Of a stretch of 64,000 nt of DNA, positions 15,072 to 38,870 are shown piece after piece (within the stretch, counting starts at the first letter, position 1; each line of letters begins with the position of its first letter). The DNA lies in IMG/VR virus record IMGVR_UViG_2923350032_000001, positions 750 to 64,749 of that record; one strand, 5' to 3'. The notes under the pieces were generated by a model that had not been told where the DNA came from, did not search any database, and was given only the letters and a program-made list of their open reading frames with translations. Source of the stretch: a virus (taxonomy: Duplodnaviria; Heunggongvirae; Uroviricota; Caudoviricetes). The translations under genes and the position numbers were made by a program.

Positions 15072-15647
15072 ATGAAAACAATCGAACAAAAAATTGAACA
15101 GTGCCGCAAGTGGCAGAAGGCAGCCAGAGAACGAGCGATCGCTCGGCAACGGGAGAAGTTGGCTGATCCGGTCTGGCGAGAATCTCAATATCAGAAAATG
15201 CGGGATACTATCGACCGCCGTATCGCTAAACAGAAAGAGCGCCCACCAGCCAGCAAAACGCGGAAAAGTGCGGTAAAAATAAAATCTCGTGGCTTGAAGG
15301 GACGAACACCGACGGCAGAGGAACGGCACATAGCCAATGCTCTTGGCGCTCTCCCCTGCATTGCGTGCTATATGCATGGAGTAATATCTGAAGAGGTGTC
15401 TCTGCACCATATTTCCGGTCGTACCGCGCCTGGTTGTCACAAAAAGCAATTGCCACTTTGTAGATGGCACCACCAGCATGCAGCACCGGCTGAAGTAAGA
15501 GCAAAATACCCCTGGCTGGTCCCTGTTCATGCCGATGGTGTGGTTGGAGGCAAGAAAGAATTCACCCTGCTGAACAAGTCAGAGATGGAGTTACTGGCTG
15601 ACGCCTATGAGGGGTCGTCTCAGAAAACGGAAAATAAAGCACGCTAA
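15072..15647 (+). CDS. ref: Ref (recombination enhancement function, HNH-type); last 11 codons supplied by the transposon inverted repeat
   Basis: 191-aa ORF matching P1 Ref through ...ELLADAYE; the Tn21-type IR starts at 15611 inside the ORF. Confidence 0.85.
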
Positions 15648-19683: not shown

Positions 19684-20503
19684 GGCACTGTTGCAAAGTT
19701 AGCGATGAGGCAGCCTTTTGTCTTATTCAAAGGCCTTACATTTCAAAAACTCTGCTTACCAGGCGCATTTCGCCCAGGGGATCACCATAATAAAATGCTG
19801 AGGCCTGGCCTTTGCGTAGTGCACGCATCACCTCAATACCTTTGATGGTGGCGTAAGCCGTCTTCATGGATTTAAATCCCAGCGTGGCGTTGATTATCCG
19901 TTTCAGTTTGCCATGATCGCATTCAATCACGTTGTTCCGGTACTTAATCTGTCGGTGTTCAACGTCAGACGGGCACCGGCCTTCGCGTTTGAGCAGAGCA
20001 AGCGCGCGACCATAGGCGGGCGCTTTATCCGTGTTGATGAATCGTGGGATCTGCCACTTCTTCACGTTGTTGAGGATTTTACCCAGAAACCGGTATGCAG
20101 CTTTGCTGTTACGACGGGAGGAGAGATAAAAATCGACAGTGCGGCCCCGGCTGTCGACGGCCCGGTACAGATACGCCCAGCGGCCATTGACCTTCACGTA
20201 GGTTTCATCCATGTGCCACGGGCAAAGATCGGAAGGGTTACGCCAGTACCAGCGCAGCCGTTTTTCCATTTCAGGCGCATAACGCTGAACCCAGCGGTAA
20301 ATCGTGGAGTGATCGACATTCACTCCGCGTTCAGCCAGCATCTCCTGCAGCTCACGGTAACTGATGCCGTATTTGCAGTACCAGCGTACGGCCCACAGAA
20401 TGATGTCACGCTGAAAATGCCGGCCTTTGAATGGGTTCATGTGCAGCTCCATCAGCAAAAGGGGATGATAAGTTTATCACCACCGACTATTTGCAACAGT
20501 GCC
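19684..20503 (-). mobile_element. IS26 (complete, 820 bp)
   Basis: 14-bp terminal IRs GGCACTGTTGCAAA at 19684 and its complement ending at 20503. Confidence 0.95.
19736..20440 (-). CDS. tnpA: IS26 transposase Tnp26
   Basis: 234-aa DDE transposase [54 protein letters not shown]... Confidence 0.95.
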   Translation of the reverse strand: MNPFKGRHFQRDIILWAVRWYCKYGISYRELQEMLAERGVNVDHSTIYRWVQRYAPEMEKRLRWYWRNPSDLCPWHMDETYVKVNGRWAYLYRAVDSRGRTVDFYLSSRRNSKAAYRFLGKILNNVKKWQIPRFINTDKAPAYGRALALLKREGRCPSDVEHRQIKYRNNVIECDHGKLKRIINATLGFKSMKTAYATIKGIEVMRALRKGQASAFYYGDPLGEMRLVSRVFEM

Positions 20504-20517
20504 CCATATCAGCCCCC

Positions 20518-21108
<591 letters not shown>

Positions 21109-21214
21109 TTAACTGATTCTACGAGATGTCATTTGTCCATTGTGCCAACTGTTATTATGGATATCGTAATTCGTACGAATCGCGCTGTTACAGGATGTAT
21201 AGCAACCTTAATAA

Positions 21215-22447
21215 TTATTTGAATATATCGGTTATAGTTGGGTAATTATACATCTTAAGCTTATCTCTAAATTTCATAGAAAATATAGGGTCTACCTTAC
21301 ATCTCTGTGAGAGCTTTGCAAGCCTTAGCTCCCTCTCTTTCATAATATCTTTGTATTCTCTATCAATACTCTCCTGAATTTGCTGATTCTCAACAGGAGA
21401 CGGTTTTGTAATTTTATCCCATTGATAAGTTGGATTCTCAGTGTAATTTAAATCATCATTTTGAAGTAATTTCTCAAGATGAGACATAGCATTTTCATAT
21501 AGCATTCTATCTTGGGGCAACATACTTGCAACACGCACTTCGCTTTCAATTTCCGATACTATCATTTCAAGTTGACGTTTTTCCATCGCTATAGCTACAC
21601 GGAATGGAAACAGGGCTTCTTGCTTAATCATTTGACAATTCACATTATTGTTTATGTCACTAAGTAATTTTACAAATGAGAACTTCGCTAAAGGCTGCTG
21701 ATTTATGACACTCTGTCTAACTGGCATTGTGTAGCTCGGTGTTTTTTCAAGTGTTTTCTTCACTTGCTCTATAGCAACATTAGGAGTTTTGAGAACAGTC
21801 TTTGCTGGAATACGTAGCACCATAAACCCCTCCTTTATTGAATATTCATCACGAATACGATCTCGCTCTATTTGTTCAGGGGATGAATGCCATGCTGCAC
21901 CATCAATTTCTATAATTTGGCGTCCATTTACGACAAAATCAAAACGATAACGCTTATAGGGCACTTGCATTTCAAGCACTAAGTCAGGAGAAACTAACAT
22001 TCCAGATTTAGGTTTAAGATTAAACTCTGCAACCATTTTACGAAGAAATGCCTCCTCAGCCGGAGATTCGCAACCTTTGCAAAATATATCAAGCCAGTTT
22101 TCTGCGTCAGCGTCAACAGTTTGCCACCATGCTAACAGTCCGCGTCGGTGTCCATATAATCGTTCATCTGACGGTTTTGTTAATGGCTTTGTTAACGGTT
22201 TAATTAAGGGTTCATTTAACGGCTTATTTAACGGATTTAATAACGATTCATTTAATGGTTTGATTGACGGTCTATTTGACGACTCAATCGGTGGTTTAGA
22301 TGATGATTTGTTTTTTTTATCAAAACCTACGATAGTTATATATGCTACATATAGCATCATGCCTGCAACAGGCCATACACATGGATAAATCACGTAACAC
22401 AACAGTAATAGAACAATAGTCCCAAAAAATGTTAACTTCTTCCGCAT
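21215..22447 (-). CDS. membrane-anchored protein with DUF559/Vsr-like (PD-(D/E)xK-type) endonuclease-like domain
   Basis: 410-aa ORF in an AT-rich segment: two N-terminal hydrophobic helices, proline-rich KPLxx repeats, then RFDFVVNGRQIIEIDGAAWHSSPEQIERDRIRDEYSIKEGFMVLRI, then an unassigned C-terminal domain. Confidence 0.6.
   Translation of the reverse strand: MRKKLTFFGTIVLLLLCYVIYPCVWPVAGMMLYVAYITIVGFDKKNKSSSKPPIESSNRPSIKPLNESLLNPLNKPLNEPLIKPLTKPLTKPSDERLYGHRRGLLAWWQTVDADAENWLDIFCKGCESPAEEAFLRKMVAEFNLKPKSGMLVSPDLVLEMQVPYKRYRFDFVVNGRQIIEIDGAAWHSSPEQIERDRIRDEYSIKEGFMVLRIPAKTVLKTPNVAIEQVKKTLEKTPSYTMPVRQSVINQQPLAKFSFVKLLSDINNNVNCQMIKQEALFPFRVAIAMEKRQLEMIVSEIESEVRVASMLPQDRMLYENAMSHLEKLLQNDDLNYTENPTYQWDKITKPSPVENQQIQESIDREYKDIMKERELRLAKLSQRCKVDPIFSMKFRDKLKMYNYPTITDIFK
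22168..22300. repeat. tandem 15-nt repeats encoding the proline-rich KPLxx linker of ORF 21215-22447
   Basis: ttaa(c/t)ggNtt(g/a)tt-type units read in sequence. Confidence 0.6.
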
Positions 22448-22499
22448 ACCAAACTCTTTGCATCAATAAAGGGGGCTGGCTTATATAATCAAATCACAT

Positions 22500-22891
22500 G
22501 CCCGAAATAAAAGATGACCAACACCAACGGAAATAACACTCTAAAGCTCCACCGCCAGCACCACCAGCACCACCAGCACCACCAGCACCACCAGCACCAC
22601 CAGCAACTGCACCCAAGGTAGAAGTTCCTTTAATATTATATCCAGTAACACTACCAGCTACTGCACCGAGAACAGCACCGAAAGTCTGAGCTGCTTATTT
22701 ATTAGCTGTATTATCAACTTTTACTTTGGCTGGGAGAACAGAGATTATATTTACTACTCTTGTTTTGAATTAAGTTGGGCTGTGTCGTACACATCTGCCG
22801 CATATTCAGCACCATTAGACTGACACCCTGAGAGAAAAATTGCAGAAACAACCATGACGCATAAAGAAGAAATTTTAGCCATTAGAATCAT
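22500..22891 (-). pseudogene. possible disrupted glycine-zipper lipoprotein gene (lipobox signal peptide, then out-of-frame Gly/Ala-rich segment)
   Basis: MAKISSLCVMVVSAIFLSGC lipobox ORF stops at 22754; an adjacent frame encodes AAQTFGAVLGAVAGSVTGY...GAGGAGGAGG without a start codon. Confidence 0.3.
22548..22614. repeat. tandem hexanucleotide repeat (CACCAG/GCACCA), about 10 units
   Basis: ccaccagcaccaccagcacc... read in sequence; encodes a Gly-Ala run on the minus strand. Confidence 0.85.
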
Positions 22892-23182
22892 CCCAGAAAA
22901 AAATATAATCCAAGAAAATCTATCACATAAGCCAAATACAAACAAGATTACAAACAAGATTAATCCTATTGATGTATATCAATTATTATAAAAAATACGA
23001 TCTTCATTGCTGAAGCTGCGTTATATTAAGTCTAAAAAAATCAACCATCGATATTATATGCTCTGCTAATAATTTATACTTGATTTAGTTGAATTGGATT
23101 AATATTGACACTTACTCACTCTCTAATTATATATAATTTCCAATTTTATATGCGCATATATAGAAACCTATACCAATAGCAC

Positions 23183-23199
23183 TTCGCTCTAATAAATTT
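23183..23199 (+). promoter_or_regulatory. C1 operator-like site heading the second c4-icd-ant module
   Basis: cTTcGCTCTAATAAATTT. Confidence 0.55.
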
Positions 23200-23259
23200 G
23201 TATTTTTAAGTCGCGAATGCTATCTTTTCGCATCATATTGACCTTTTAATCGTTCAGGC

Positions 23260-23352
23260 TTGTAGTTCCGCCGTCGTAGCAAATTCTGCGACCGGGTTTA
23301 GCAGCCTGAATACTTACGCGGACAACCGCAGATTTCCGATATTGCGGTATTT
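23260..23352 (+). ncRNA. candidate c4-like antisense RNA of the second immunity module
   Basis: untranslated region with hairpin ACCGCAGATTTCCGATATTGCGGT + T-run, arranged like 9790-9885. Confidence 0.25.
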
Positions 23353-23511
23353 TTGTGTCCGTAAACCACGTTACGCCCGAATTATGGTGGGGCGTGATGG
23401 GGAGGCTTCGGCCTGCTGGTTTCGTAAGTGCCAGTCTGCTAACCCCGTCACGTCCTGCCACCTGTTTAGCAGCGGGTCGCAGGTTGTTTATCAACTTACG
23501 AGGCCGTAACT

Positions 23512-23733
23512 ATGGTTAATGCCAATCCTTGCGCACGCCAAGAATTCATCTGGCGTTTCTATTCCTGTAAAAAACACCACTATCACTTCGTTATCGCAGC
23601 AACAGAAGACGAAGCACGCTCTCAATTGCCTGATGGCCCCTGCATTTTTACTGCCCGTTTTTCAACTAACTCGCGCAATTCACTTAGTTACTGGAGCCTC
23701 CCCTTCTCTGCCGACGTTCAGGGGGGTTTATGA
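23512..23733 (+). CDS. icd: Icd-like protein (second copy)
   Basis: 73-aa ORF MVNANPCARQEFIWRFYSCKKHHYHFVIAATEDEARSQLPDGPC... Confidence 0.75.
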   Translation: MVNANPCARQEFIWRFYSCKKHHYHFVIAATEDEARSQLPDGPCIFTARFSTNSRNSLSYWSLPFSADVQGGL

Positions 23734-24775
23734 AAACACCTCTCGTCACCCGTAATGAAATAGCCGAAGCGATCGCCTTGCATACTGCCTGTATGCCGAC
23801 ACGGGAGACCCCCGGCGCAATTGCCAACTATTTCATGATAACCAGACGTTTTTATACCCGAACAGATAAGGCTGTGATCAACAGGCTACTGATAGCCGAG
23901 ATCAGGGATTATTTGATTGAACAAGGACGTCTACGTTACGCAACAGTGGCAGCAGAAATGAGAAAGGAGGCGCGCAGAATGACCGGTAATAATTTGAATG
24001 TTGAAAAACCAGCACCTGTTGCTTCAGCTACGCCATCACCAGCTGTGAATGTTATCTCCAACACTGGAGACACAATCGACAGCCAGACACTGTTAAAGAT
24101 GGTCAATGAAGCGCGTAAGTTATGTGTGGAACCAGAGGTTCGGAACAACAAATTCATCGAAAAAATACTCGACGAATTAGAAGGTGAGGACGGTTACACA
24201 AAAAGTGCAACCGTGCCGCCAGGTGGCGGTACGCCTATGGTTGTCATAACCATGACCTACAAACAAGCCCTGCGAGTCGCGCGCGCGAGTCAAAAGCGGT
24301 CCGCCGTTCGCTGATCGACAAACTGGAAGAATTGCAGCAGGCATACTCCCCTGCCCCATCGATCCCCCAAACATTACCAGAAGCTCTACGCATGGCTGCC
24401 GAGTTGGCAGAGCAGAAAATGCAGTTGGAACAGCAGCTGGTGGCCGCAGCCCCTAAAGTCGATTTTGCCGACCGGGTATCAGTGGCCAATGGAATCCTGA
24501 TCGGGAACTTTGCAAAGGTCGTTGGACTTAAGCAAAACGCCCTTTTCTCATGGTTGCGCCAGAACGGCATTCTCATGGCTTTTGGAGCGCGCAAAAACGT
24601 ACCGCGCCAACAGTACATCAATGCGGGGTATTTCACGGTGAAAGAAGTGGTGCTGGATGATGAAAATGGCTACCAGATACGGCTGACGCCCCAATTAACG
24701 GGTAAAGGCCAGCAGTGGTTAACTCGCAAGCTACTTGATGCTGGTTTGTTAAAACCAGTGGCGTCCTTGTCTTAA
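23730..24775 (+). pseudogene. antirepressor-like gene split into two frames (194-aa N-part, 147-aa KilA-C-type C-part)
   Basis: ORF 23730-24314 ends ...SQKRSAVR*; an overlapping frame continues ...KAVRRSLIDKLEELQQAYSPAPSIPQTLPEALRMAAELAEQK, parallel to the intact paralog 10280-11392. Confidence 0.6.
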
Positions 24776-25327
24776 CGTATTCAGACCAGGATTTGCCATA
24801 AATTACAGGCATGTGTACGATATGCCCAACCCTGTTTTTCAGGGGAGGCGCAACGTTATGCGGGGGTTATGAACTCCTGGATGCGTAGCCTCCAGACAGA
24901 AAAAACCCTCGCCACAACGTTGCATGGAGGCAACCAGCGAGGGCATTCCTTATGTCTGATCAACAAGAGGATAGCCGCAAGCAGTTGCTGTTGCAAGTGT
25001 GCGGAGCTTCGTAATGACTCTTCAAAAAGCTTGCAAGTGGATTGTGACCAACATCATTGTTCCTGTCATCATCGGAGCTTCAAGTTCTGTGTTGGCATCA
25101 GTGATTGCCTCACTTCTCCACATTGCATAACAACATTGAAGGGCGTTAGTTCGCAGTGTAACAGCAGCGCGTTGCGCCCGAACAGGCCACAGGGTAAAAC
25201 CTGTGGCCTTTTTCGTTTTAGCCAGCCACAAATCCACATTGAAAAACGCCTTATACAAAAAAACCTGCCAGCAAACTGGCAGGTTTCTGAGCAGTTCGAC
25301 CAACCCGATCTGGATCGAGTCAGAAAA

Positions 25328-25344
25328 ATTTGCTCTAATAAATT
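25328..25344 (+). promoter_or_regulatory. C1 operator upstream of kilA-repL
   Basis: ATTTGCTCTAATAAATT about 70 bp upstream of the kilA ATG. Confidence 0.7.
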
Positions 25345-25414
25345 TTGTTTTCTGAGTGCAAAGAATCACCATTTCGAGCTGGTGATTGAAGGTTGATGCA
25401 AATTTGGAGAAAAA

Positions 25415-26215
25415 ATGCAACAAACATTCAATGCGGATATGAATATATCAAACCTTCATCAAAATGTCGATCCTTCAACCACTCTGCCTGTTATTTGTGG
25501 TGTTGAAATTACGACCGACCGCGCTGGCCGTTACAACCTTAATGCTCTACACAGAGCGAGCGGACTCGGTGCCCATAAAGCGCCAGCTCAATGGCTAAGA
25601 ACGCTGTCAGCCAAACAGCTCATCGAAGAGCTTGAAAAAGAAACTATGCAGAATTGCATAATTTCGTTCGAAGGCCGTGGCGGCGGCACTTTTGCCCATG
25701 AATTGCTCGCAGTGGAGTACGCTGGTTGGATTTCTCCCGCGTTTCGGCTGAAGGTAAACCAGACATTTATCGACTATCGAGCTGGAAGATTACAACCTGC
25801 TATTCCGAAGAGCCTCCCAGAAGCTCTCCGTTTGGCTGCCGACCTGGCAGAGCAAAAGCAACGGCTGGAGCAAAAAATGCTTATGGATGCACCTAAAGTC
25901 GAATTCGCCGAACGCGTTGCTACCGCCAGCGGGGTTCTAATCGGCAACTATGCCAAAGTGCTCGGCCTGGGCCAAAACTATCTCTTCACCTGGTTGCGTG
26001 ATAACGGAATTCTGATCGCAACCGGTGAACGCAGGAACGTCCCCAAACAAGAATACATATCCCGTGGGTATTTCACCCTTAAAGAAACCGTGATCGATAC
26101 AAGCAATGGAAGCAGGATTTCTTTCACGACTCGTATAACCGGCAAAGGTCAGCAGTGGCTGATGAAGCGATTGCTTGATGCTGGTGTGCTGGTACCTGTC
26201 GCGGCAACGCGCTAA
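25415..26215 (+). CDS. kilA: KilA (KilA-N plus KilA-C/ANT domains)
   Basis: 266-aa ORF directly upstream of repL. Confidence 0.9.
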   Translation: MQQTFNADMNISNLHQNVDPSTTLPVICGVEITTDRAGRYNLNALHRASGLGAHKAPAQWLRTLSAKQLIEELEKETMQNCIISFEGRGGGTFAHELLAVEYAGWISPAFRLKVNQTFIDYRAGRLQPAIPKSLPEALRLAADLAEQKQRLEQKMLMDAPKVEFAERVATASGVLIGNYAKVLGLGQNYLFTWLRDNGILIATGERRNVPKQEYISRGYFTLKETVIDTSNGSRISFTTRITGKGQQWLMKRLLDAGVLVPVAATR

Positions 26216-26244
26216 CAGACGTAGTAAGAACCACCAGCATTGTA

Positions 26245-27090
26245 ATGCTGGCTAAAGTCACTTTCCTGAGCTGTATAACGATGAGCGATTTTACTTTTTC
26301 TGGCTATGAATTGGCCTGCTTTGTAACACACTCCGGTCTATCCCGTAGCGCCGGGCATATCCTGTCGCAATGTGCAAATCTCGCGGCAACAACCAGTGAA
26401 TACTTCATTCACAAGCCTCACCGCCTGATCGCGGCAGAAACTGGTTATAGTCAATCAACCGTCGTTCGTGCATTCCGTGAAGCTGTAAACAAAGGAATCC
26501 TGTCTGTAGAGATTGTTATCGGCGATCACCGTGAACGTCGCGCTAACCTGTACCGGTTTACACCATCCTTTTTGGCCTTCGCACAACAAGCCAAAAATGC
26601 GCTGATTGAAAGCAAATTAAAGATCTCTTCAGCGGCAACTAAGGTTAAAGCTGTTCTCGCTAAGACATTAGCTTTATTTAATTTTTTATCCACACCCCCA
26701 TGTCAAAATGATACCCCCTCCCCCTGTCAGGATGACGTGGCAATAAAGAATAAGAAGTCACAAGTTAAAAAAACAAAAAGATCAGTTTCCGGCGGTGCCG
26801 GAACGATCAGACTCAAAAAATTGACTTCATGGATCGCTGAGACAAAAGCAAAGGCTGACAATCTGCGGTTATCCAAAAAACGCGCTCAAAAACATGAGTT
26901 CAAGCAGAAAGTAGAGGCGGCAGCGCGGAAATATGCTTACCTGAAGAACAAGCGTTCTCCTGATATTGGCGGGGTATCAAACTTCGATAATCTGCCGCAT
27001 TGCATGACGGTAAACGAAGCTCTTAATGCGGTTTTAGCCAAAAATAAAGATAACGAACAATGGGGTATACCGGCAGGATTCAGAGGGTGA
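26245..27090 (+). CDS. repL: RepL lytic replication initiator (oriL expected inside the gene)
   Basis: 281-aa ORF following kilA, as in P1. Confidence 0.9.
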   Translation: MLAKVTFLSCITMSDFTFSGYELACFVTHSGLSRSAGHILSQCANLAATTSEYFIHKPHRLIAAETGYSQSTVVRAFREAVNKGILSVEIVIGDHRERRANLYRFTPSFLAFAQQAKNALIESKLKISSAATKVKAVLAKTLALFNFLSTPPCQNDTPSPCQDDVAIKNKKSQVKKTKRSVSGGAGTIRLKKLTSWIAETKAKADNLRLSKKRAQKHEFKQKVEAAARKYAYLKNKRSPDIGGVSNFDNLPHCMTVNEALNAVLAKNKDNEQWGIPAGFRG

Positions 27091-27092
27091 TA

Positions 27093-27109
27093 GATTGCTC
27101 TAATCTGGA
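27093..27109 (+). promoter_or_regulatory. C1 operator half-site-like sequence
   Basis: ATTGCTCTAATctggag directly after repL stop. Confidence 0.35.
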
Positions 27110-27140
27110 GTCACCTGGCGTTTTCAGTTTGAGGTCGGAG

Positions 27141-27386
27141 ATGCAATCTGATTTTTTACAGTTAGCGATCGCTTTTGCAGGATATGTTTGTATTGGCTTC
27201 TGTGTATACATGATCAGCCGAAAAATGCTTGTCGATATCGACCGCAAAGAACAAGCAGAGGAGATCTTAGTATGGATTTTCTTTGGCGCGGTCTGGCCAT
27301 TAGGGATCATGTTTGCTGCAACATTTCTTCTGATGTGGATATTCACCCTTCCAGGTGATTTCTATAGAAAAAAAGCCAGACATTGA
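27141..27386 (+). CDS. small predicted membrane protein (two hydrophobic helices)
   Basis: MQSDFLQLAIAFAGYVCIGFCVYMISRK...ILVWIFFGAVWPLGIMFAATFLLMWIF. Confidence 0.35.
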   Translation: MQSDFLQLAIAFAGYVCIGFCVYMISRKMLVDIDRKEQAEEILVWIFFGAVWPLGIMFAATFLLMWIFTLPGDFYRKKARH

Positions 27387-27568
27387 TACAATCGTTGCGG
27401 GTGCTTGAGGCTATCTGCTTCAGGCATTACCCGAAAAGCAGATAGAAGAAAGCCCCAGATAACATTACGCGTCCTGCAAGACGCTTAACATTAATCTGAG
27501 GCCATATCTATGCTTAGCATACGTAGATTAGCCTCTTACCGACCAAAAGGTCAAGGAGAAGCAGGCTA

Positions 27569-27724
27569 TGAAGCAGCAAAAAGCGATGTTAATCGCTCTG
27601 ATCGTCATCTGTTTAACCGTCATTGTGACGGCACTGGTAACGAGGAAAGACCTCTGCGAGGTACGAATCCGAACCGGCCAGACGGAGGTCACTGTCTTCA
27701 CAGCCTACGAATCTGAAAGGTAAG
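27569..27724 (+). CDS. hok: Hok/Gef-family type I toxin (51 aa)
   Basis: MKQQKAMLIALIVICLTVIVTALVTRKDLCEVRIRTGQTEVTVFTAYESER fits the Hok/Gef pattern; overlapping mok-like frame 27510-27716. Confidence 0.8.
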
Positions 27725-27744
27725 AGACCTGGCGGGGAGAGATC

Positions 27745-29086
27745 CCATAAGCGCTAACTTAAGGGTTGAACCATCTGAAGAATGCGACGCCTCGGTGCCT
27801 CGTTAAGACGATGCCTCGCGTTCTTCAATTGCGTTTTGTAGGCTGTCAGGGATACTGTCCCACGAATGGCCACCTGTAAGCTCCAGATGACCATTTTTGT
27901 TATTCTCCACAACGAGTTAGTTCTTCTTTTCGGATCCGGCACTTCTGGGGGGGAAATCCAGCGATGGCTGGATTATGTCGTCAATTAAAAATGCGGCGAG
28001 TAGATTAGCAAATATCCACGCTTTCGCGAGTTCAGGTTCCTTTGCACGCAAAGCATCCAGGTGCAGCAAACTTTTGAGCCGCTTAAAAGCCAGTTCAATT
28101 TGCCATCGCAGACGGTAACAATCAGCCACTTGCTCTGCTGAATATTCATCTTCCGGTAATGATGTTAGCAATAGCACATGGCCCGCTGCTTCCAGCGTTT
28201 CCGCCTGAACTACTCGTCCTTTTCGACGATTCTCGCTGAGCAGTCGGGTTTTACTGATTAATGCTTTTTCGGGAGGAAGTGATACGGCAATGAGACGTGC
28301 CGGAAAGGGAGCTCCGGCTTTTTTATTACCTGAATTGCCTATCATTACAGTGGTTTCACCGTTCTTACCGCAATCCAGCCCGCGCAGAAAACCCATCATG
28401 TCAAAGCGCATTCCTTCTGCAGTTAACCAGCGCAATCCTCGCCAGTGAACCCGGACGATATAATCAGCTTCTCCAAAAGCAAGTGAGCGGATACATTCGG
28501 GACGCGAACCGAATCCCCGGTCAGCAATGCGTATCTCGTCTGCCGTTTGCGCAAATCGGTCCAGCCGTTCAGCGTCTCTGCTGTCGGTTAGCTCAAAATC
28601 AGTGAACTGACAGGTATGAGGATCATATCCCATATGTAGTCGCCATTCAGCGCTGCCGCCCCCGGGCGCACTGATTGCTGTTCCATCGACAAGACGCAAT
28701 CTCTTTCCGCTTGTACAACCCGTAACTGCGGCGCGTACAGCAAGTGTTTGTGCGGCAAGTATGCCAAACCAGTCGGCGGCATTCCGCAGCCGCTTCAGGA
28801 GAGCCACGTCAGATAATGTTGCAACGTCATGGAGCTGAGCCCATGCAGTGACTTCACGTAATGACATCCCCCCGGGGCCGTAAGCCAGCCCCAGACGTAG
28901 CAGAGTTGCAGCATCACGAATTTCGCGGCGGCGGGTTAGAGCCCCGGCATTACGTGCCGAAGTATCCAGTTCTTCGGGCTTACCAATATGGGCCAGAATT
29001 GCTGACCAGTTATCGTGAGAGTAATTCATCGGCACGTTAAATCATATCAGGCGTAATACCACAACCCTTAAGTTAGCGCTTATGGG
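27745..29086 (-). mobile_element. IS186 (IS4 family)
   Basis: terminal inverted repeats CCCATAAGCGCTAACTTAAGGGTTG at both ends; 370-aa transposase inside. Confidence 0.88.
27917..29029 (-). CDS. IS186 transposase
   Basis: MNYSHDNWSAILAHIGKPEELDTSARNAGALTRRR... Confidence 0.9.
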   Translation of the reverse strand: MNYSHDNWSAILAHIGKPEELDTSARNAGALTRRREIRDAATLLRLGLAYGPGGMSLREVTAWAQLHDVATLSDVALLKRLRNAADWFGILAAQTLAVRAAVTGCTSGKRLRLVDGTAISAPGGGSAEWRLHMGYDPHTCQFTDFELTDSRDAERLDRFAQTADEIRIADRGFGSRPECIRSLAFGEADYIVRVHWRGLRWLTAEGMRFDMMGFLRGLDCGKNGETTVMIGNSGNKKAGAPFPARLIAVSLPPEKALISKTRLLSENRRKGRVVQAETLEAAGHVLLLTSLPEDEYSAEQVADCYRLRWQIELAFKRLKSLLHLDALRAKEPELAKAWIFANLLAAFLIDDIIQPSLDFPPRSAGSEKKN

Positions 29087-29426
29087 AGTGATCCCCGCCA
29101 CTCTTCGTGTGTCTGGTAACCTCAATGCACCCTTTTCTCCCCAATAGTGTAAAACACAATGAAGTAGAAGGAGTTATTTCACATCATGCAAAGATTCAGA
29201 CCATATCTCCCAATAGCCTTCGCGACATGATGACTTTCAGAAATATCTAGCTGTTAACAAAATTCCATACTTGCTTTGCTAATACCACCTAGATTATATA
29301 TGGAAAAATACACCTAAAACTTAAACAAATTATATCCACAACAAACATCCATCTATTAGGATTAAAATTAATTTAATAATAAATAATACAACACCGGTTC
29401 ATTTTCTAACAAACCGGTGGGCACCA

Positions 29427-30419
29427 TTATTGGAATAACTTACTGATTACATTAAAAACATTAAGGGCGTTACTTGCCACACTAGACATCTTGGCTGAAT
29501 TTTTTTCGATTGAGTCAAGAACACTTTCGACTTCCGATAAAGTTCTTCTGCTATCTGCATCTTTTCCTGAGTCTATCGCATCTTTAATTGCAGATATAGC
29601 AGACTCTAAATTCTCCTTAAACTCACCTGTCGTCTCATCCTTCAAGAGAAGTTCTAACTCTTGTTTAAGTTTTTCCAATGATGCTCTTTTCTCATCAGTT
29701 TTACTAATCTTCCCTGAATAACTGACACAAACACATTCTCTTTTATTGCAGACAGGACAACCATTTAGATAATAACTTTCAAACGCCTCGCCAAGATCAT
29801 CATCTTTAAAAATAATCCCCCATAAAGAAAACAACCAAGCATATATATCAGCACACTCTTCATGAAGATTTTCTTTGTTGTAATTTTTATCTTCAATTGA
29901 TTTAGCATAAGCCTCTTGCAACTCACCCAACTCTTCGAATAACCTGGATGAATGATAAAACCCACCAAAAGTAGACCAAATGGTTCTATTCGACGGATAG
30001 ATGTCATTAATCATTCGTGGCGCATAAGGCGGAAATTGCATAGGTTTAATAGCGTTATATTTATTGAAAAGCTCATCTTTAATTCCTTTTGCGCTTCTTA
30101 TTTTCTCTGGCTTTCTGTGTGTTTGAGAACAGGAACAAGGCGCCCCTAAGCAATAAGGACAGCAACTAGGAAATTTTTTATAAAATGCTTCCTGTGGTTG
30201 TATTTCAAGTTTATCACAGATTGCAAAAAGCCAAGACAATGCTTCTATATAGGTATTTTTTAATAATTCTTTATCCTGATTACCATCACGAATAAACTCA
30301 CGTGTTAAATAAGCTGTTTTCCTTGTCAGATAAGAGTACATATACTCAAATGATTTTTCTTCATTTTTTTTGCTGTAAATACCTACAATAATATTGCTCA
30401 TATCATTGATACGTAACAT
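29427..30419 (-). CDS. tandem MazG-like (all-alpha NTP pyrophosphohydrolase-like) protein with two Cys-rich zinc-ribbon-like motifs
   Basis: AT-rich ORF; start likely Met with AAGAGG RBS at about 30419; FEELGELQEAYAKSIEDKNYNKENLHEECADIYAWLFSL; CCPYCLGAPCSC and CPVCNKRECVC. Confidence 0.55.
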   Translation of the reverse strand: MLRINDMSNIIVGIYSKKNEEKSFEYMYSYLTRKTAYLTREFIRDGNQDKELLKNTYIEALSWLFAICDKLEIQPQEAFYKKFPSCCPYCLGAPCSCSQTHRKPEKIRSAKGIKDELFNKYNAIKPMQFPPYAPRMINDIYPSNRTIWSTFGGFYHSSRLFEELGELQEAYAKSIEDKNYNKENLHEECADIYAWLFSLWGIIFKDDDLGEAFESYYLNGCPVCNKRECVCVSYSGKISKTDEKRASLEKLKQELELLLKDETTGEFKENLESAISAIKDAIDSGKDADSRRTLSEVESVLDSIEKNSAKMSSVASNALNVFNVISKLFQ

Positions 30420-30716
30420 GACATTCCTCTTAAATAAGCCAATACTTCCTAGAACCATATATGCTTCGACAAAGATTAACGGACATCTTGCCTTCACAAA
30501 CTTTGACGCTACATAAATTTAACCATGTGCATACTAAATATTTAAGGTAGAAAAGTATAGGAGTATTTATTAATAGGTAACTGTTAGTTTACACTCACTT
30601 CATACCAGAGTATTTACAAGATGTTATTTTACTCTATTCGCTAGGCGGTGGAATGCGGTTGTATCAAGGGGAGGTAAACCTCCCCCGAAGAAGATTAAAA
30701 GTACAAGGGATAACAC

Positions 30717-31226
30717 TTAATCCCACTCAATCCAGTTGTAGACGATACGAAGTGACGGGCGCACAGCGGCAGTCACATCTTCGGTACTAAAGTCGATTGC
30801 ATCACTGTAGATTTTGCAGTCCAACATTTCAATTGTTGTAGCAGCTTTTGTCACAGCGTTAACCCCGGAAGATTTGGATTCAGGGGTAGCAGCCATCGTG
30901 ATATCAACATAGTCCTTCGCCGCAATGCGATCTTTAATGAACTGAAGAATATCGCCTTCGATAGTCTCCACGCACTGGACCTGGATTTCCCCAGAGTTTC
31001 GAATTGGACCGTGCTGGTTGAACTTCACACCATTCGGACCATAGTCCTCCACATCCTCGCGGGTCATTTCAGGAATTTGCGACGTGCGAACCAGTACGCT
31101 GATATCTTCATGGCCTGCAAAAGTGAGCTGGAATTCAGAAGATACCAGTCGTTCGCCTTTGGCCGCGTTGGCAGTATAGCGGCCCTTAATAAATTTACGG
31201 TTTCCCTTAGTGTTATTGTGCCCCAT
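30717..31226 (-). CDS. phage structural-cluster protein, tail tube-sized
   Basis: 169-aa ORF in a co-directional cluster with the sheath-sized gene. Confidence 0.35.
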   Translation of the reverse strand: MGHNNTKGNRKFIKGRYTANAAKGERLVSSEFQLTFAGHEDISVLVRTSQIPEMTREDVEDYGPNGVKFNQHGPIRNSGEIQVQCVETIEGDILQFIKDRIAAKDYVDITMAATPESKSSGVNAVTKAATTIEMLDCKIYSDAIDFSTEDVTAAVRPSLRIVYNWIEWD

Positions 31227-31237
31227 ATAAAATCCTT

Positions 31238-31819
31238 TTACTGGAACGCCCGAACAATATCGGAGCTGTTATATATCGAAGAACCGGTCAACTGGAGGTT
31301 GACGGTGTTTTTCAGGAAATGCCCATTGCTGTCCCTGGGCGCATCGAGATCGAAACTTATGTCCTGGATAGCGACATCAATGATGTTGATCCGGCGACCA
31401 ATGTTTAGCGTCACGCGCTCCGGGATTCGACCACCAATACTGGCATCTTTAAGTTCCGGGCTAATCATCGCTGACAATGCGGCGATAGCTCCTGAAACCT
31501 CCGTGAATGGGTCAAACAAAGCGATGAAAGTTACTGGCAGCGTGAAAGTCGGCGGTGTTCCCCCTTCCCAAACCATTAAGCTGTTCCAACGGGCAACCGA
31601 CGTTGTTTCAGTACCAACCTGCGCAAAACCACTGAAGGCACCAGCAACAGATCCCATGGACATACCGGTAAACGGCGCTTCCCAATTCTGGGCCATGTTC
31701 ATTGCCGCCCCCTGGCTGATATATCCGGTAACCTGGTACTGAGAGTTCGTTAAAGTAACTTTCAGAAATGGCGATACACCGTCAGCCTGGCTGTAAACCC
31801 CATAAGGTATAGGTGCCAT
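31238..31819 (-). CDS. phage structural-cluster hypothetical protein
   Basis: 193-aa ORF, tight spacing within the minus-strand cluster. Confidence 0.4.
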   Translation of the reverse strand: MAPIPYGVYSQADGVSPFLKVTLTNSQYQVTGYISQGAAMNMAQNWEAPFTGMSMGSVAGAFSGFAQVGTETTSVARWNSLMVWEGGTPPTFTLPVTFIALFDPFTEVSGAIAALSAMISPELKDASIGGRIPERVTLNIGRRINIIDVAIQDISFDLDAPRDSNGHFLKNTVNLQLTGSSIYNSSDIVRAFQ

Positions 31820-31854
31820 TCAAGTTAAAGGCCGGAGTTCTCCGGCCTCCTCCT

Positions 31855-32670
31855 TTAGCCAAGGCGCTTACGGCGCAGTTTCATTGACTTTTTGCGGGCA
31901 AGTTTTGCCGCGCCGGTCTGGGCTTTTCGACGCGCTTTTTTCAGCGCCGATTTTTGAGCCGCAGTCAGACGTTTTTTACGCAGGCGTTTACGGATGAGTT
32001 TGATCTCACCGTTACGAACAACCTTCTTAAATGCTTCAGTCAGCATTTCATCAGAAGTGCCAGCAACAACAAACGCCGCTTCCAGTTCGTCACGGTCGTC
32101 GCTATCTAAACCAGCGATAGAGGCACCAACATCAGCAGCTGCGTCGTCGTCTTCATCATCAGCCAGTGCTTCGATCAGGTCATCATCTACACCGCATGCT
32201 GCGAGGAAGTCAGCAACATTTGCCCATGCTTCGTTATAGGCATCGTCCTGTTCTTCTGTAACTTCGGAGTCGTCGTCATCAGAGATACCAGCGATAGCCT
32301 GAACGAAACCATCAAGGGAGTCGAAAGTCAGATCACCGCTATCAGCCCAGGCGAAAACGGCGTCGGCCGCATCACTCAACGCATTCTGCATAGCACTTCG
32401 ATTTGCAGCTTCCAGAATCATCTGGTGCGCCTGTTCGACGGTCCATTCTTTACCGTCTTTCCCTTCCAGGATTTGCTCAGGAGCCGGGGCAGATGGAACG
32501 TTATCGTTAGTCTGTGCCGCCGGTTCCGGATTATTATTAATAACCGGGTCTGTTGGCGGTTCGGCGCTTGCTCGGGCAGACTCCATCAGCTGCACAGGAT
32601 CAGAGTTCAAAGCGAAACGAGACAGTCCATTCCCCAAAAATGCCCCGGATTGAAAAAAGTTTTTGCTCAT
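31855..32670 (-). CDS. highly acidic protein with basic C-terminal tail
   Basis: 271-aa ORF with D/E-rich runs and a K/R-rich C-terminus. Confidence 0.4.
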   Translation of the reverse strand: MSKNFFQSGAFLGNGLSRFALNSDPVQLMESARASAEPPTDPVINNNPEPAAQTNDNVPSAPAPEQILEGKDGKEWTVEQAHQMILEAANRSAMQNALSDAADAVFAWADSGDLTFDSLDGFVQAIAGISDDDDSEVTEEQDDAYNEAWANVADFLAACGVDDDLIEALADDEDDDAAADVGASIAGLDSDDRDELEAAFVVAGTSDEMLTEAFKKVVRNGEIKLIRKRLRKKRLTAAQKSALKKARRKAQTGAAKLARKKSMKLRRKRLG

Positions 32671-32679
32671 TGTATTCCC

Positions 32680-34269
32680 TTACTTAATAAGCAGCGGTAC
32701 GCCCTGGATACGACGGGCTACGCCAGTCGGGCAGCAGGCCCAGACTACTTCCCATTTATCGAATTCCGCCTGCGTAACTTTCAGCACATACGGTTCTGTA
32801 CCGTCAGCATCAGGATCACGAGGAGCCACCAGAGCGCCGGAGGCGACAAAGCGATCCAAAAGTTTGGTCATCCCTTTAGTCAGACCAGCGGCAGTAATAC
32901 CGTCAGGGCTATGCTTCATCTGGCGGGCTAACTGGACAAAGAAACGGCTGATTGCATTCATCAGGGATGGGACGTGCTGGAAGTGCAGATAGTTATCCTG
33001 CGTGCAGCAAGTTAAAGCATCGTCGATGATCATCTGGCCAGAGGTGCCAACAGATACTTTATTGAGGCGGCCCTTAACCATTGCTTCTTCGTCCGGGGTA
33101 TCTTCCGGATACAGCGGTTGAATTGACGCACGAGCAATGACGGCACGTTCTTCACCAGCCGGTGAGTAATGCCAACCGCCGACATCAGAGTTTTTCTTGA
33201 CGCCACGAGCTTTCGCCGCATACGCCGCGCCAGACAGACCGAAGACCACACGGGATTGGGTCCATTTGTCTTTGCAGGAGAACGGGAAGTGATAGACAGC
33301 ACAGCTTACATAATCGGTACCAAATAAACCGGTATCTTCAACAGCAGAGAGCGCTTCCGTATACGTCAATGTCGGTTTGACATCAAAGAAGCCATCAATC
33401 AGGCGATCAGAACAAATATTACCTAACGCGGTGATCGCCGCATTGTCATAGCAACCCAGGCCGAGAACAGCGGTGTACATGTACGGCGCATTGTTCAGCA
33501 CTTTCACCGCACGCAGGTACGCAGCGGTTGAGATTTTCGACTGATCACCGTTGGTACCACCAGTGAACGCCAACGATTTTTTATTTGTTACTTTCGCCGT
33601 CGAAATCAGCTCTTCATTAACAACCGCGCGCAGATATTTAGAACGGGCTTCCAGAGCCGTAGGCAGATAACACAAGCGGCCCATGTCATCTTTCGCTTCT
33701 TCCGCCAAAGACACAGTGTGTGTCTCCAGGGTCGTTACCACGCCGAGCGAAGTCGTCTGGGTAAGTTTTAAGAGGAAGCGTTCATTACCCGCGCTGTCCG
33801 CTGTTGCCGTTTCGATGGTTAACTCACGGGTAGGTGAAATACACGGATCACCATCATCAACGTAGATAGCAAAGGCTTCGCCACTATCAAGTTCAATTTC
33901 AGAACCGTATGGCAACGCACTGTAAGCCGGTTCGCCTGATTCATCGAACATAATAATCGGGAACTTCGCATCATCCGGAACAGCACGAACAACATAACCT
34001 GACGTTTGCTGAATAGCTTCGTATACATGGCGAATTGGTTCGAACTGTGAGCCGGAAGACGGCTTCAGCGGTTCGCCGAGAACATCTTCGTAATTGGACT
34101 CAGTAACCGCAAGAACAGTAAACGGCTTGCCACGCGCAAATACGCCAATACCAGCCCACAAGCTGCTATTTAATGCAACACCGGTAGATAACGTCGCATC
34201 GGCATTGATCGGGCTAACCGCGACGCCGGATGCATTACCTAATGACTGTTGAATTGAATATTGAGACAT
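32680..34269 (-). CDS. putative tail sheath-like protein
   Basis: 529-aa ORF; size and position in the cluster next to the par region, as for P1 gene 22. Confidence 0.4.
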   Translation of the reverse strand: MSQYSIQQSLGNASGVAVSPINADATLSTGVALNSSLWAGIGVFARGKPFTVLAVTESNYEDVLGEPLKPSSGSQFEPIRHVYEAIQQTSGYVVRAVPDDAKFPIIMFDESGEPAYSALPYGSEIELDSGEAFAIYVDDGDPCISPTRELTIETATADSAGNERFLLKLTQTTSLGVVTTLETHTVSLAEEAKDDMGRLCYLPTALEARSKYLRAVVNEELISTAKVTNKKSLAFTGGTNGDQSKISTAAYLRAVKVLNNAPYMYTAVLGLGCYDNAAITALGNICSDRLIDGFFDVKPTLTYTEALSAVEDTGLFGTDYVSCAVYHFPFSCKDKWTQSRVVFGLSGAAYAAKARGVKKNSDVGGWHYSPAGEERAVIARASIQPLYPEDTPDEEAMVKGRLNKVSVGTSGQMIIDDALTCCTQDNYLHFQHVPSLMNAISRFFVQLARQMKHSPDGITAAGLTKGMTKLLDRFVASGALVAPRDPDADGTEPYVLKVTQAEFDKWEVVWACCPTGVARRIQGVPLLIK

Positions 34270-34329
34270 AACTTTCCCTGTTATGCGCCCCGCACGGGGG
34301 CGCTATGTTAAACGGAGAACTTCCCCTGA

Positions 34330-36057
34330 TTACTCAGAGTCACCGGCATCAATCGTGTCGCCGCTAATGAAGTTAAGCCCGCCTTTTTTGGCCATTGTCA
34401 GCGTTACACGAGTGAAGTAATCAGCGCCGTTGCGTGGGTGCATATCGTTGATAGCCGAACCCCACAGTGTGGTACGGTTGACCAGCGCCGGAGTGGTCGG
34501 ATGCTGGAACGGGATAGCCGGGACAGCATCACCAGTCACGAAGCCTGCTTTACCCGGATTTTCATCACGGACGTAGCACAGCACATCCATCGAGCTGAAC
34601 TGAATGTTCTCTGTCGTTAAGTTCTTACAAATACCAGCAGGTACTTCGTACACTTTCACGTTACCGAACAGGGTACCGATGTAGTGAACATACGGAGTCT
34701 GGATATAGTCTTCGGCTGGCTGGAAGAAATCCTTCGGCAACTGTTTGAAGAAAGATGCTGCATCAGCACCAGCAAACATCCCCATCGCACCAGAAGATTT
34801 AACGCGCTCAATAATGTCGCGATATACAGTCTGGAATTTGCCACGAATGATGGTTGCCCATACATCAAAGGACTGGTTAACCGGCAGAGCGATGTCAAAG
34901 GTGTCGGTCGCAAGAGTACGCCAGATCATGATGCGAAGACGCAGCATATCCTGTTCATGAGACAGGTATTCCTTCAGGGTGCGGAACTGTAGGGAACCCA
35001 GGTCCAGACCAAATTCACGCTGTGCTTCATACGCCGCCTGTACCGTGTGCTCAGCCGCGATAACGAACTGGCTTGGGAACAGGGTGTATTTCTTCATTTC
35101 GTGGTTGATCAGCGGGATCAGCTCAGGAGCGGCTTCAATATTGATTTCCGTCTCAATTGCGATCTCAGTGCCTTTATCCGGCGCTTTGGAGAACGACAGG
35201 GCAATCTGACCAATGTTGTAGTTCAGAGAGCAGGTAACAGTGATTTGCTCACCAGCAGCATTAGTAAACGAGTGAAGTAGGCTGCCGGAACCGTTATCAA
35301 CAACAGACTTAATACGGTTAACGTAGATATTAGTGCGACCTTTTCGGATTGGTACATTCTGGCCTTCGAAGTCTTCCATCTTGAAGGTTGCGGTTTTGCT
35401 GGTGCCATCGGAGCTTGCCACCAGCACATAGCGGCGGCGTAACTGGCTGTACACACCGACGGATTGCATGTCCAGAACATCACCAGCAGCATAAGAACCA
35501 AAAGAGGAACCTGCCACGTTAAAGACTTCATAGATGTCGGACTGGTCACGCGTAACCGGAATGAAGGTACACGCATCAGCGGTAGCTGCCCCCAACTGAA
35601 CAGGCAGGATCATCGCGAGGAATAAAGGCAGACGCATAACACCGTCAGAAACGCTCATCATCTCTGCTGCAACGGATTCCAGCATCGCTTTATTAGTGGC
35701 ATCCATGCTATTGCGGGTGGACTCAATCAGGCAGTTTTCCAGCGTCTGGTGGCAGGAGGCCAGAATTTCCGGACGCGGCATAGATTTATGTGCTGCGGCG
35801 TAGTCAGCCAGTGCACTTGCCCACGCTGTAGCGATTTGAGCGGTGGCATTATCAGAGATACCCGCAAAAACCGGGTCTTTACGTGCAGCTTCAAGGATAG
35901 ATGCGGCACGCGCGGCATCATCTTTAATGAATTGGTTATCAGTACCGAACTGCGCAGTGCTTGCCCAGCCAAGCACAGCTTTAGAGCGTTTTGCGATATC
36001 TGCAATACGATTCTGGTATTCGCGTAAGTTACTCAATTTACTCTTCCTTAAACACAA
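34330..36057 (-). CDS. phage structural protein (candidate major head protein by position)
   Basis: 575-aa ORF between parS and the sheath-like gene. Confidence 0.35.
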   Translation of the reverse strand: MCLRKSKLSNLREYQNRIADIAKRSKAVLGWASTAQFGTDNQFIKDDAARAASILEAARKDPVFAGISDNATAQIATAWASALADYAAAHKSMPRPEILASCHQTLENCLIESTRNSMDATNKAMLESVAAEMMSVSDGVMRLPLFLAMILPVQLGAATADACTFIPVTRDQSDIYEVFNVAGSSFGSYAAGDVLDMQSVGVYSQLRRRYVLVASSDGTSKTATFKMEDFEGQNVPIRKGRTNIYVNRIKSVVDNGSGSLLHSFTNAAGEQITVTCSLNYNIGQIALSFSKAPDKGTEIAIETEINIEAAPELIPLINHEMKKYTLFPSQFVIAAEHTVQAAYEAQREFGLDLGSLQFRTLKEYLSHEQDMLRLRIMIWRTLATDTFDIALPVNQSFDVWATIIRGKFQTVYRDIIERVKSSGAMGMFAGADAASFFKQLPKDFFQPAEDYIQTPYVHYIGTLFGNVKVYEVPAGICKNLTTENIQFSSMDVLCYVRDENPGKAGFVTGDAVPAIPFQHPTTPALVNRTTLWGSAINDMHPRNGADYFTRVTLTMAKKGGLNFISGDTIDAGDSE

Positions 36058-36059
36058 GG

Positions 36060-36300
36060 CACTTGTGTGAATCCCTTTTCGGAAGAGATTTTATTGAAAG
36101 TCACTTGTTGACTTTCTCGCTAAAAGTAATTTTTTAAATTTTTTGTGCGGGGGAGGGGGCAAGTAAAATAGGCGTGAAACCGTGGGAATTTCAGTCTGAA
36201 ATTTTTCTAAAAAACATATATAAATCATAATGTTAATAATGAAATCGGTGCGGGACATTTTAGGCAGGGGAGGGGCTAACGCCACCTCCCACCAGCAGGT
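36060..36300 (-). other. parS-like partition centromere region downstream of parB
   Basis: AT-rich segment with TTTCAC-type heptamers and G-rich boxes; not mapped in detail. Confidence 0.35.
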
Positions 36301-37266
36301 TTATTTTCCTGCGGACATTTTCTCAATGATTTTTTTTATTGCTTCGTCAATTTCAGTTTGCACTTCAGATGGGAGTCTGGAGAACTCGTAGGCGACTACC
36401 CGTTTTTTCGGATCGGTCTTCTTTCGTGCGTACTGGCGTCGGTCAGAGAAATCTCGCAGCTTCTCTACCACTACAGATTTAACCGGCGCAGGTTTCAGGC
36501 TTTTGCTTTCCGCTTTGAAGATAGCCAGTATCTTCGCTTTATCCTCTTTCGCGCCCTCAGTCTCTGCAATTCGCTCGCGCACCGTATCAACCAGTTCTCC
36601 AATCGGTACGTTTTTAGCGTTAGCATCTTCGGAGATCTGGAGCAGCAACTGGTAATCAGGCAGGGCGAGATCGCTGGCAACAGGGAAGACAGCAATCATC
36701 TCATCCGGCACCGCCGCAGCCTGGAAAGCTCGCGTCACTTTAGCCTTTGAGATGTTCTCAGCTCGGGCGATCTCTTCTTTGGTCATATTCTTGCCGTACA
36801 TAACCTCGAAGCGTTTACCCAGCTCGCGCAGGGTGTGTTCGCGGGCTGTCTGGATATCAATGGCCAGCTGGCGGGCATCTGCCAAGCTGATCTCATCTTT
36901 CGTCACCAGAATCTCAAATTTCGTTTCATTGAAGATACACGCAGCGCGGCGACGTGATCCGTCCAATACCTCAATGCGCTCCCCAACCATACGGCCGATA
37001 GCCGGGAAGAACTGTTGCAATTTAATGGTGCGGGAAATATCGCTTACCGACTCAGGGGTGAGCAGAGACTGATCGCGGCCGTTAACTGCCGGGTCAACGA
37101 ACGTGCGCGACTCAATCTCACCACTCAGCACAACGGTAAGCAAAAATTTAGCCTGGCGGCCAGATTTTAGGGTAAAGGTTTTGGTGCCTTCACTGCCTTC
37201 AAGCATGCGAGCAAACTCGGAGCTATTCTTGCCCAGCACTCGTCCACGGGAAACTATTTTTTTCAT
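36301..37266 (-). CDS. parB: ParB partition protein (P1 ParB family, diverged N-terminus)
   Basis: 321-aa ORF with ParB box (ILDGSRRRAA), overlapping parA stop. Confidence 0.85.
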   Translation of the reverse strand: MKKIVSRGRVLGKNSSEFARMLEGSEGTKTFTLKSGRQAKFLLTVVLSGEIESRTFVDPAVNGRDQSLLTPESVSDISRTIKLQQFFPAIGRMVGERIEVLDGSRRRAACIFNETKFEILVTKDEISLADARQLAIDIQTAREHTLRELGKRFEVMYGKNMTKEEIARAENISKAKVTRAFQAAAVPDEMIAVFPVASDLALPDYQLLLQISEDANAKNVPIGELVDTVRERIAETEGAKEDKAKILAIFKAESKSLKPAPVKSVVVEKLRDFSDRRQYARKKTDPKKRVVAYEFSRLPSEVQTEIDEAIKKIIEKMSAGK

Positions 37267-38474: not shown

Positions 38475-38582
38475 CTCCTTATCATTTCGTATGAGTGAAT
38501 TGTACGTTTGATTCTGCTACGTGCAACTTTTTTTGATTCGTGCGTCAATTATTGCACGTAAAGAAATGGCGATGAGGCTATT

Positions 38583-38870
38583 AGATGTGTGCTGGAGGGA
38601 TGATGCAGGACCAGAATGTGCGATAGAGGGAAGTCGCATTGAATTATGTGTTGTGGAGGGATCGCTTGTATCAAATATGTGTGCTGGAGGGAAAGACAGA
38701 GAATTACATGTGCACTGGAGGGAAAAACGGATGGACAGATGTGTGCTGGAGGGAAAGTCTGAGCAAACTGCGGGGCGTCCCCCTCCAGCGCACATCAAAA
38801 ACGGGAAATTGGACAAGCCTTCCCGGCAGCACACATTTTTTGAATGCAGCTGCCCTCCAGCACACACTTA
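38583..38870. repeat. incA iteron array (about nine 19-bp RepA-binding repeats in both orientations)
   Basis: repeated GATGTGTGCTGGAGGGA / TCCCTCCAGCACACAT units downstream of repA. Confidence 0.8.

Follow-up and report, generated by a model that had tools for sequence, protein, structure and literature searches.

IS186 within a palindromic hairpin downstream of hokD in a P1-like phage-plasmid, flanked by an imperfect and apparently recombinant target duplication

The 64-kb window considered here, meaning the whole stretch of 64,000 nucleotides that was analyzed, includes a hok/sok locus into which a copy of IS186 is inserted (Table 1). The locus lies just after the icd-ant-kilA-repL genes of a P1-like (Punavirus) phage-plasmid, a placement with which the annotations of related plasmids agree. 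The immI (c4-icd-ant), kilA and repL block is present, the C4 RNA and its a1/b1 targets were found, and related records carry repA, parA/parB-like genes, tail fibre genes and a recombinase. Over window positions 22500 to 27400, P1-named phage records cover 76% of the sequence at 98.3% identity; for record AF234173.1 the figures are 70% and 96.0%. Plasmid pEC85-4-128k is 99.86 to 99.98% identical to the window over positions 20493 to 39728 (99.98% over 22577 to 39728), but the content to the left of approximately 20493 (positions 1 to 20492) is unrelated, and the window is therefore another mosaic P1-like plasmid. A scan of the whole window found no tRNA genes.

Two other features of the phage-plasmid backbone were observed. 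First, the window holds two C4 antisense-RNA loci. One is in the expected immI region (c4-a1b1 at 23260 to 23312, C4 at 23380 to 23465). The second (9796 to 11392) is composed of isrK (9796 to 9874), a C4 RNA (9920 to 10007) and an antirepressor ORF with ANT/KilAC and ORF6N (10280 to 11392), and sits between ORFs of 397 and 494 aa (7024 to 9701) and a 283-aa ORF on the minus strand (11425 to 12276), with a 343-aa tyrosine recombinase further on (13430 to 14461). Among these neighbors Pfam supports only the recombinase; in size and order they presumably correspond to pacA, pacB, c1 and cre of P1. Only one c4 locus is known from canonical P1. Second, the 281-aa protein beside kilA (26245 to 27090) is annotated inconsistently: phage records and one RefSeq plasmid call it RepL, but in most other RefSeq plasmids the name is either "MarR family transcriptional regulator" or "helix-turn-helix domain-containing protein".

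Table 1. Features of the interrupted hok/sok locus (window coordinates)
Feature	Position	Strand	Basis
Promoter-like site (TAGAAA-16-TACAAT, with TG), placed for a hok mRNA start near 27399	27365..27392	+	Consensus scan
hok mRNA leader and Sok-complementary region	27399..27573	+	Rfam RF01794 sok
mok-like overlapping reading frame, 68 aa	27510..27716	+	ORF list
hokD-type Hok toxin gene, 51 aa, intact	27568..27723	+	NCBIfam Hok matches below cut-off; RefSeq naming
Left arm of palindromic target (TGGCGGGG), 5′ half of hairpin stem	27730..27737	.	Adjoins right arm in L001-L003 and L012
Left 6-bp core copy AGAGAT (A allele at 27740)	27738..27743	.	Repeat search and allele comparison
IS186 (also called IS421), 1343 bp including CCC/GGG ends	27744..29086	-	Repeats and K-12 comparison
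IS186 invariant core, 1337 bp	27747..29083	-	0 mismatches to K-12 IS186A and IS186C
IS186 terminal inverted repeats	27744..27768 and 29062..29086		Repeat search
IS186 transposase InsL, 370 aa, intact, antisense to hok	27917..29029	-	IS4-family match; identical to K-12 InsL1
Right 6-bp core copy AGTGAT (T allele at 29089)	29087..29092	.	Repeat search and allele comparison
Right arm of palindromic target (CCCCGCCA), 3′ half of hairpin stem	29093..29100	.	Empty sites and fold
Predicted fbi-like 3′ element (CCTCAATGCACCC), complementary to hok mRNA 5′ end	29120..29132	+	MFE folds

The hok leader matches sok with 114.9 bits, where the gathering score is 59 (E = 8.8e-27), and the position of the promoter-like site agrees with the start of this match. 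The Hok ORF itself matches the NCBIfam profiles NF007279 (E = 2.8e-13) and NF007290 (E = 1.2e-9), with scores of 49.5 and 38.1 bits that fall under the curated cut-offs of 73 and 89, respectively. In related plasmids, a gene of equal size at the corresponding position, and matched by these two properties, is named hokD in RefSeq (WP_001313475.1). The overlapping frame is a putative mok, given a layout like that of mokC/hokC in K-12.

A palindrome starts 7 nt past the hok stop codon, and IS186 begins 20 nt past it. When uninterrupted homologues and the transcript rebuilt from the window were folded by minimum free energy (MFE), the palindrome was predicted to form a 9-bp stem capped by a GNRA tetraloop (-18.6 kcal/mol). 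We considered this hairpin as a terminator and rejected it: a scan for terminators detected none of the canonical intrinsic kind there, since no T-run follows, and the hairpin was therefore treated as an internal mRNA stem-loop. In the same folds, the first 12 nt of the hok mRNA (27399 to 27410, tac-like) are predicted to pair with the fbi-like element, as in the tac/fbi fold-back model of hok mRNAs (PMC9841398). Because IS186 lies between them, the mRNA body is now parted from this predicted 3′ partner by 1.34 kb. The resemblance to hok/sok of plasmid R1 extends to the Hok ORF, the overlapping mok-like frame, the Rfam match in the Sok region and the predicted pairing of the mRNA ends. Unlike the R1 locus, the one in the window has its 3′ element split from the mRNA body by IS186.

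Rightward of the hairpin (window 29101 to 30497 and beyond), the DNA exists in two versions that diverge approximately 58 bp after the IS. The window has the rare version, with a 356-aa ORF (29427 to 30497, minus strand) that is MazG-like according to RefSeq and that gave no Pfam or NCBIfam match in profile scans. In the common version, a terminator-like hairpin (AAAAAAGCTCCCGAAGGAGCTTT) comes after the fbi-like element. No obvious terminator for hok was seen in the right-hand version present in the window.

By sequence, the inserted element is an intact, canonical IS186. This identification had been made in a preliminary description of the region, and it is confirmed by the identity of the core to K-12 IS186A and IS186C and of the transposase to InsL1. 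The transposase also matches the IS4-family profile NF033592 (133.2 bits against a cutoff of 115). A search of the 64-kb window with the perfect terminal inverted repeat of IS186 (...ATAAGCGCTAACTTAAGGGTTG) returned exactly two matches, at 27747 to 27768 (+) and 29062 to 29083 (-), with 0 expected by chance. RefSeq labels the element as IS421 family. Within IS186, the strand that is sense for hok bears a terminator-like hairpin followed by TTTTTT (28299 to 28318, +), and a 19-nt inverted repeat is located near the IS end (27776 to 27794 with 27809 to 27827). Either of these structures could stop transcripts that read through from hok.

Direct reading gave ...CCTGGCGGGGAGAGAT/CCCATAAGCGC... for the left junction and ...GCGCTTATGGG/AGTGATCCCCGCCACT... 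for the right one or, written across the IS, ...TAAGAGACCTGGCGGGGAGAGAT/CCCATAAGCGCTAACTTAAGGGTTG...(IS)...CAACCCTTAAGTTAGCGCTTATGGG/AGTGATCCCCGCCACTCTTCG..., which exactly reproduces the flanks reported in the preliminary description. That description took them to be inverted with respect to each other rather than a clean direct duplication. The inversion is real. A repeat search recovered an inverted repeat of 39 nt (27730 to 27768 versus 29062 to 29100, 90% complementary) that is made up of the IS186 terminal repeat plus nine perfectly complementary flank bases (TGGCGGGGA / TCCCCGCCA), and by our own arithmetic a symmetric inverted flank of 9 bp has a chance probability of about 4^-9. However, the lack of a direct repeat does not hold, since the core copies AGAGAT and AGTGAT had been overlooked. 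The repeat search aligned GGGAGAGATCCC (27735 to 27746) with GGGAGTGATCCC (29084 to 29095) at 11 of 12 positions, 1349 bp apart, and within these segments a 6-bp core is copied directly on both sides of the IS with five of its six bases matching. Inverted versus direct duplication is thus a false choice: the arms are inverted, and the core between them is directly duplicated.

The comparison proposed in the preliminary description, with an uninterrupted homologue, was made by joining both flanks into one query and searching complete E. coli genomes. Ten records hold the joined flanks uninterrupted at 98.6 to 99.3% identity, and are 5 to 6 bp shorter than the sum of the two flanks. Three empty sites (L001-L003) read TGGCGGGGAGTGATCCCCGCCA, contiguous with both flanks, and plasmid pO111_2 (L012) has ...AGAGAT... 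at this place. No unrelated sequence was seen at the site. The layout in the uninterrupted relatives is TGGCGGGG-AGTGAT-CCCCGCCA, and the wider reading in L001-L003 is GACCTGGCGGGG-AGTGAT-CCCCGCCACTCTTCG. Empty sites are therefore GGGG-AGTGAT-CCCC or GGGG-AGAGAT-CCCC, with the core found on both sides of the IS in the occupied state. Both forms fit the published IS186 target 5′-GGGG(N6/N7)CCCC-3′, in which the core of 6 to 7 bp is the duplicated part (Lee et al. 2016, PMC5009759), and the preference for a GC-rich palindromic target that the preliminary description gave for IS186 was correct. GGGGN6CCCC occurs nowhere else in the 64-kb window, where 0.43 occurrences are expected by chance.

From these comparisons, the G-run and the C-run are evidently the two arms of one palindromic target that were parted by the insertion of IS186, and the flanks are inverted to each other because this palindrome was split at its center. 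Two other origins for the flanks were weighed against the empty sites. The runs might belong to the mobile element as part of longer terminal inverted repeats, given that the inverted repeat reaches 14 nt past the canonical IS186 ends and that GGGG/CCCC stand beside the ends in all three K-12 copies. We give this almost no credence, as it is refuted by empty sites in which both arms are adjacent with a single core between them, and the bases past GGGG/CCCC vary among the K-12 copies (GGCGGGG, GCCGGGG, GCGGGG). Alternatively, the flanks might be unrelated DNA, joined when IS186 caused a deletion or an inversion or when two copies of it lying far apart recombined, with no true duplication. The MazG-like right neighborhood is indeed rare, and only five records match the full right junction. 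Nevertheless, this origin is highly improbable and is refuted by the ten records with joined flanks; moreover, the variable region begins approximately 58 bp beyond the right-hand end of the IS and not at that end.

Note that the CCC/GGG at the IS tips are indistinguishable from the GGG/CCC of the target itself. Therefore, the duplication can be written as 6 bp, as 10 bp (GGAGAGATCC) or as up to 12 bp. All three readings give an identical product, and the sequence alone fixes no length. The 6-bp convention is that of Lee et al. 2016, wherein the IS ends are CCC...GGG, and the 10-bp convention is that of the paper on plasmid pSvP1 discussed below. Three things together account for why the duplication does not look clean: the palindromic target, this ambiguous boundary between IS and target, and the recombinant allele described below.

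One uninterrupted plasmid (L011, NZ_CP151646.1) reads GGCGGGGAGAGATTCCCGCC at the site matching window positions 27731 to 27743/29087 to 29099. The C-to-T change in this GATTCCC allele disrupts the C-run half (CCCC) of the IS186 motif as well as one pair of the stem, and could be a target-destroying variant.

The two core copies differ at a single base, A at 27740 and T at 29089. This base sits second in the GNRA loop, which is either GUGA or GAGA; the two forms have equal predicted stability. Both alleles exist at empty sites: L001-L003 combine the T allele with the MazG-type right flank, and pO111_2 combines the A allele with the other right flank, which bears the terminator-like hairpin. 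Occupied sites show all four left/right combinations: A/T in the window and in pEC85-4-128k (L007), A/A in pWL164-2 (L008), T/A in p1540-3 (L009) and T/T in pUTAK-22-3 (L010), and the duplications in L008, L010 and L014 are perfect. As insertion always makes two identical core copies, the A/T chimera must have arisen afterwards.

Linkage to neighboring variation bears on how this occurred. On the left flank, the window shares its SNPs (27058C, 27084A, 27253A, 27428T and 27740A) with two empty sites of the A allele, L011 and L012, and on the right flank it agrees with L001 and L002, which are empty sites of the T-allele, MazG type. The left-flank haplotypes are mosaic themselves, with mixed states in L003, for example. 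This pattern favors a left flank derived from an A-allele plasmid and a right flank derived from a T-allele plasmid, joined by homologous recombination or gene conversion inside IS186. The simpler proposal is that the mismatch is a point mutation, an error of repair synthesis or a sequencing error following a single insertion into a T allele. Only one base differs, and a change in a hairpin loop that leaves a GNRA sequence of equal predicted stability would likely be neutral. However, the A allele is already present in uninterrupted plasmids such as L012, the A in the window is accompanied on the left flank by four or more other SNPs that characterize A-allele plasmids, and reciprocal T/A chimeras exist along with both parental types (A/A and T/T). 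The independent record of pEC85-4-128k, which is also A/T, speaks against a sequencing error. The haplotype linkage thus favors recombination, and we regard a mutation or error as improbable. Three SNPs were seen inside IS186, but each is private to another plasmid and hence uninformative for the crossover position, which is not mappable inside the IS because the copies are nearly identical.

Plasmid pL9-1 (L015, NZ_CP142045.1) was considered as a second A/T recombinant and rejected, because its left junction and hok have been destroyed by other IS elements. In this plasmid, the left part of the IS186 copy and hok are replaced by an IS91-family region, which shows further IS-driven decay at the hok locus.

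A census of complete E. coli genomes with 55-nt junction searches centered on the allele returned 169 records for the left junction with A, 12 plasmids for the left junction with T, 8 plasmids for the right junction with T on the flank of the window, and 231 records for the right junction with A. Comparison of the accession lists yielded six T/T, six T/A and one A/T plasmid, the last being pEC85-4-128k, and an estimated total of about 167 for A/A. A junction constructed with the opposite end of the IS was found at 100% identity in at least 25 plasmids. The one plasmid of this orientation that was checked, p276M-CTX-M-55, has IS186 reversed at exactly this position, flanked by a perfect A/A duplication. 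Because both orientations occur at the identical position, the site must have been hit at least twice independently. For the A allele there are 169 occupied sites versus approximately 189 flank-only matches, and for the T/MazG type there are 8 versus 10, the flank-only figures being raw search matches; roughly half of the plasmids with the hok locus would thus be occupied. These counts show that the hairpin is a recurrent hot spot for IS186 on P1-like phage-plasmids, including many with resistance genes.

Closely similar insertions are known from E. coli K-12. In hokC (gef)::IS186A (MG1655 15387 to 16731), the target is identical (GGCGGGGAGTGATCCCCGCC), the junctions are GGCGGGGAGTGATCCC-IS-GGGAGTGATCCCCGCC and likewise 20 nt past the stop codon, the IS has the same orientation relative to hok, and the IS core is 100% identical. 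This insertion differs in being chromosomal, in lying beside the paralogue hokC with another upstream flank, and in having a perfect T/T duplication. The hokC::IS186 junction is present in approximately 1,475 of 5,426 complete E. coli genomes, on chromosomes. The target of K-12 IS186C is GCCGGGGATAATTCCCCGG, and hokE::IS186B has the left junction GCGGGGAGTAATCCC-IS. Pedersen and Gerdes reportedly described the hok loci of K-12, in 1999, as inactivated by IS elements. Work on the IS186 hot spot at the lon promoter by SaiSree et al. in 2001 is said to have provided the original consensus target. The hot spots reported by Lee et al. 2016 (PMC5009759) share with the window the GGGG/CCCC 4-mer palindrome, the 6-bp core and the use of either orientation at one site. 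Those hot spots are on the K-12 chromosome in mutation-accumulation lines, whereas the site in the window belongs to a phage-plasmid found in natural isolates.

Insertion of IS186 at this hok site has already been reported by Venturini et al. (2019, PMC6906374) in the P1-like plasmid pSvP1, where the copy, named IS186B, comes with a direct repeat of 10 bp, GGATCTCTCC, and lies next to the lytic-replication module. This repeat is the reverse complement of GGAGAGATCC, that is, of the A-allele core with two flanking bases on each side. The replicon type and the location beside the lytic-replication (repL) module are shared with the window. In pSvP1, which we know from its published description, the repeat is perfect (A/A), in contrast to the A/T chimera of the window.

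The observations are brought together by the following account, to which we assign a probability of roughly 92%. An intact IS186 would have transposed into its preferred GGGG-N6-CCCC palindrome, the GNRA-looped hairpin after hokD in the hok/sok locus beside repL of a P1-like phage-plasmid, duplicating the central 6-bp core and leaving each flank with one palindrome arm and one core copy. The loop base would be naturally T or A, with IS186 having hit both alleles, and a crossover within the 1.3 kb of identical IS186 would have joined an A-allele left flank to a T-allele right flank. The hok transcript would then run into IS186 and lose its fbi-like 3′ fold-back partner together with its normal 3′ end.

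The functional consequence is drawn by analogy with published work (PMC3562002 and PMC9841398). In K-12, the insertion is believed to impair the fbi element of hokC and the processing of the mRNA; nevertheless, transcription of gef and its regulation by antisense RNA persist in K-12 (PMC3562002), which counts against a loss of hok expression. The killer module in the window is probably disabled or deregulated, as has been proposed for hokC/gef of K-12.

A broader and more doubtful idea is that the GGGG-N6-CCCC hairpin of the hok family acts as a built-in trap for IS186, such that insertion is recurrent, and possibly selected as a means of silencing hok, on chromosomes and P1-like phage-plasmids alike. 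We consider this rather unlikely, although each of its elements has been published: the IS186 motif, the presence of IS186 at hok loci of K-12, and the role of hok as a hot spot for MGE insertion (bioRxiv 10.1101/527788). If true, the GATTCCC allele of L011 could be an escape mutation that destroys the target.

The insertion itself was already known, each component of the account has been published before, and the understanding of IS186 and of hok/sok is unchanged. For annotation, the boundaries of the IS are now fixed, and the hokD locus can be described as interrupted in its 3′ control region and probably non-functional. The locus also illustrates how homologous recombination between two occupied alleles, and not mutation, may produce a target duplication that is imperfect.
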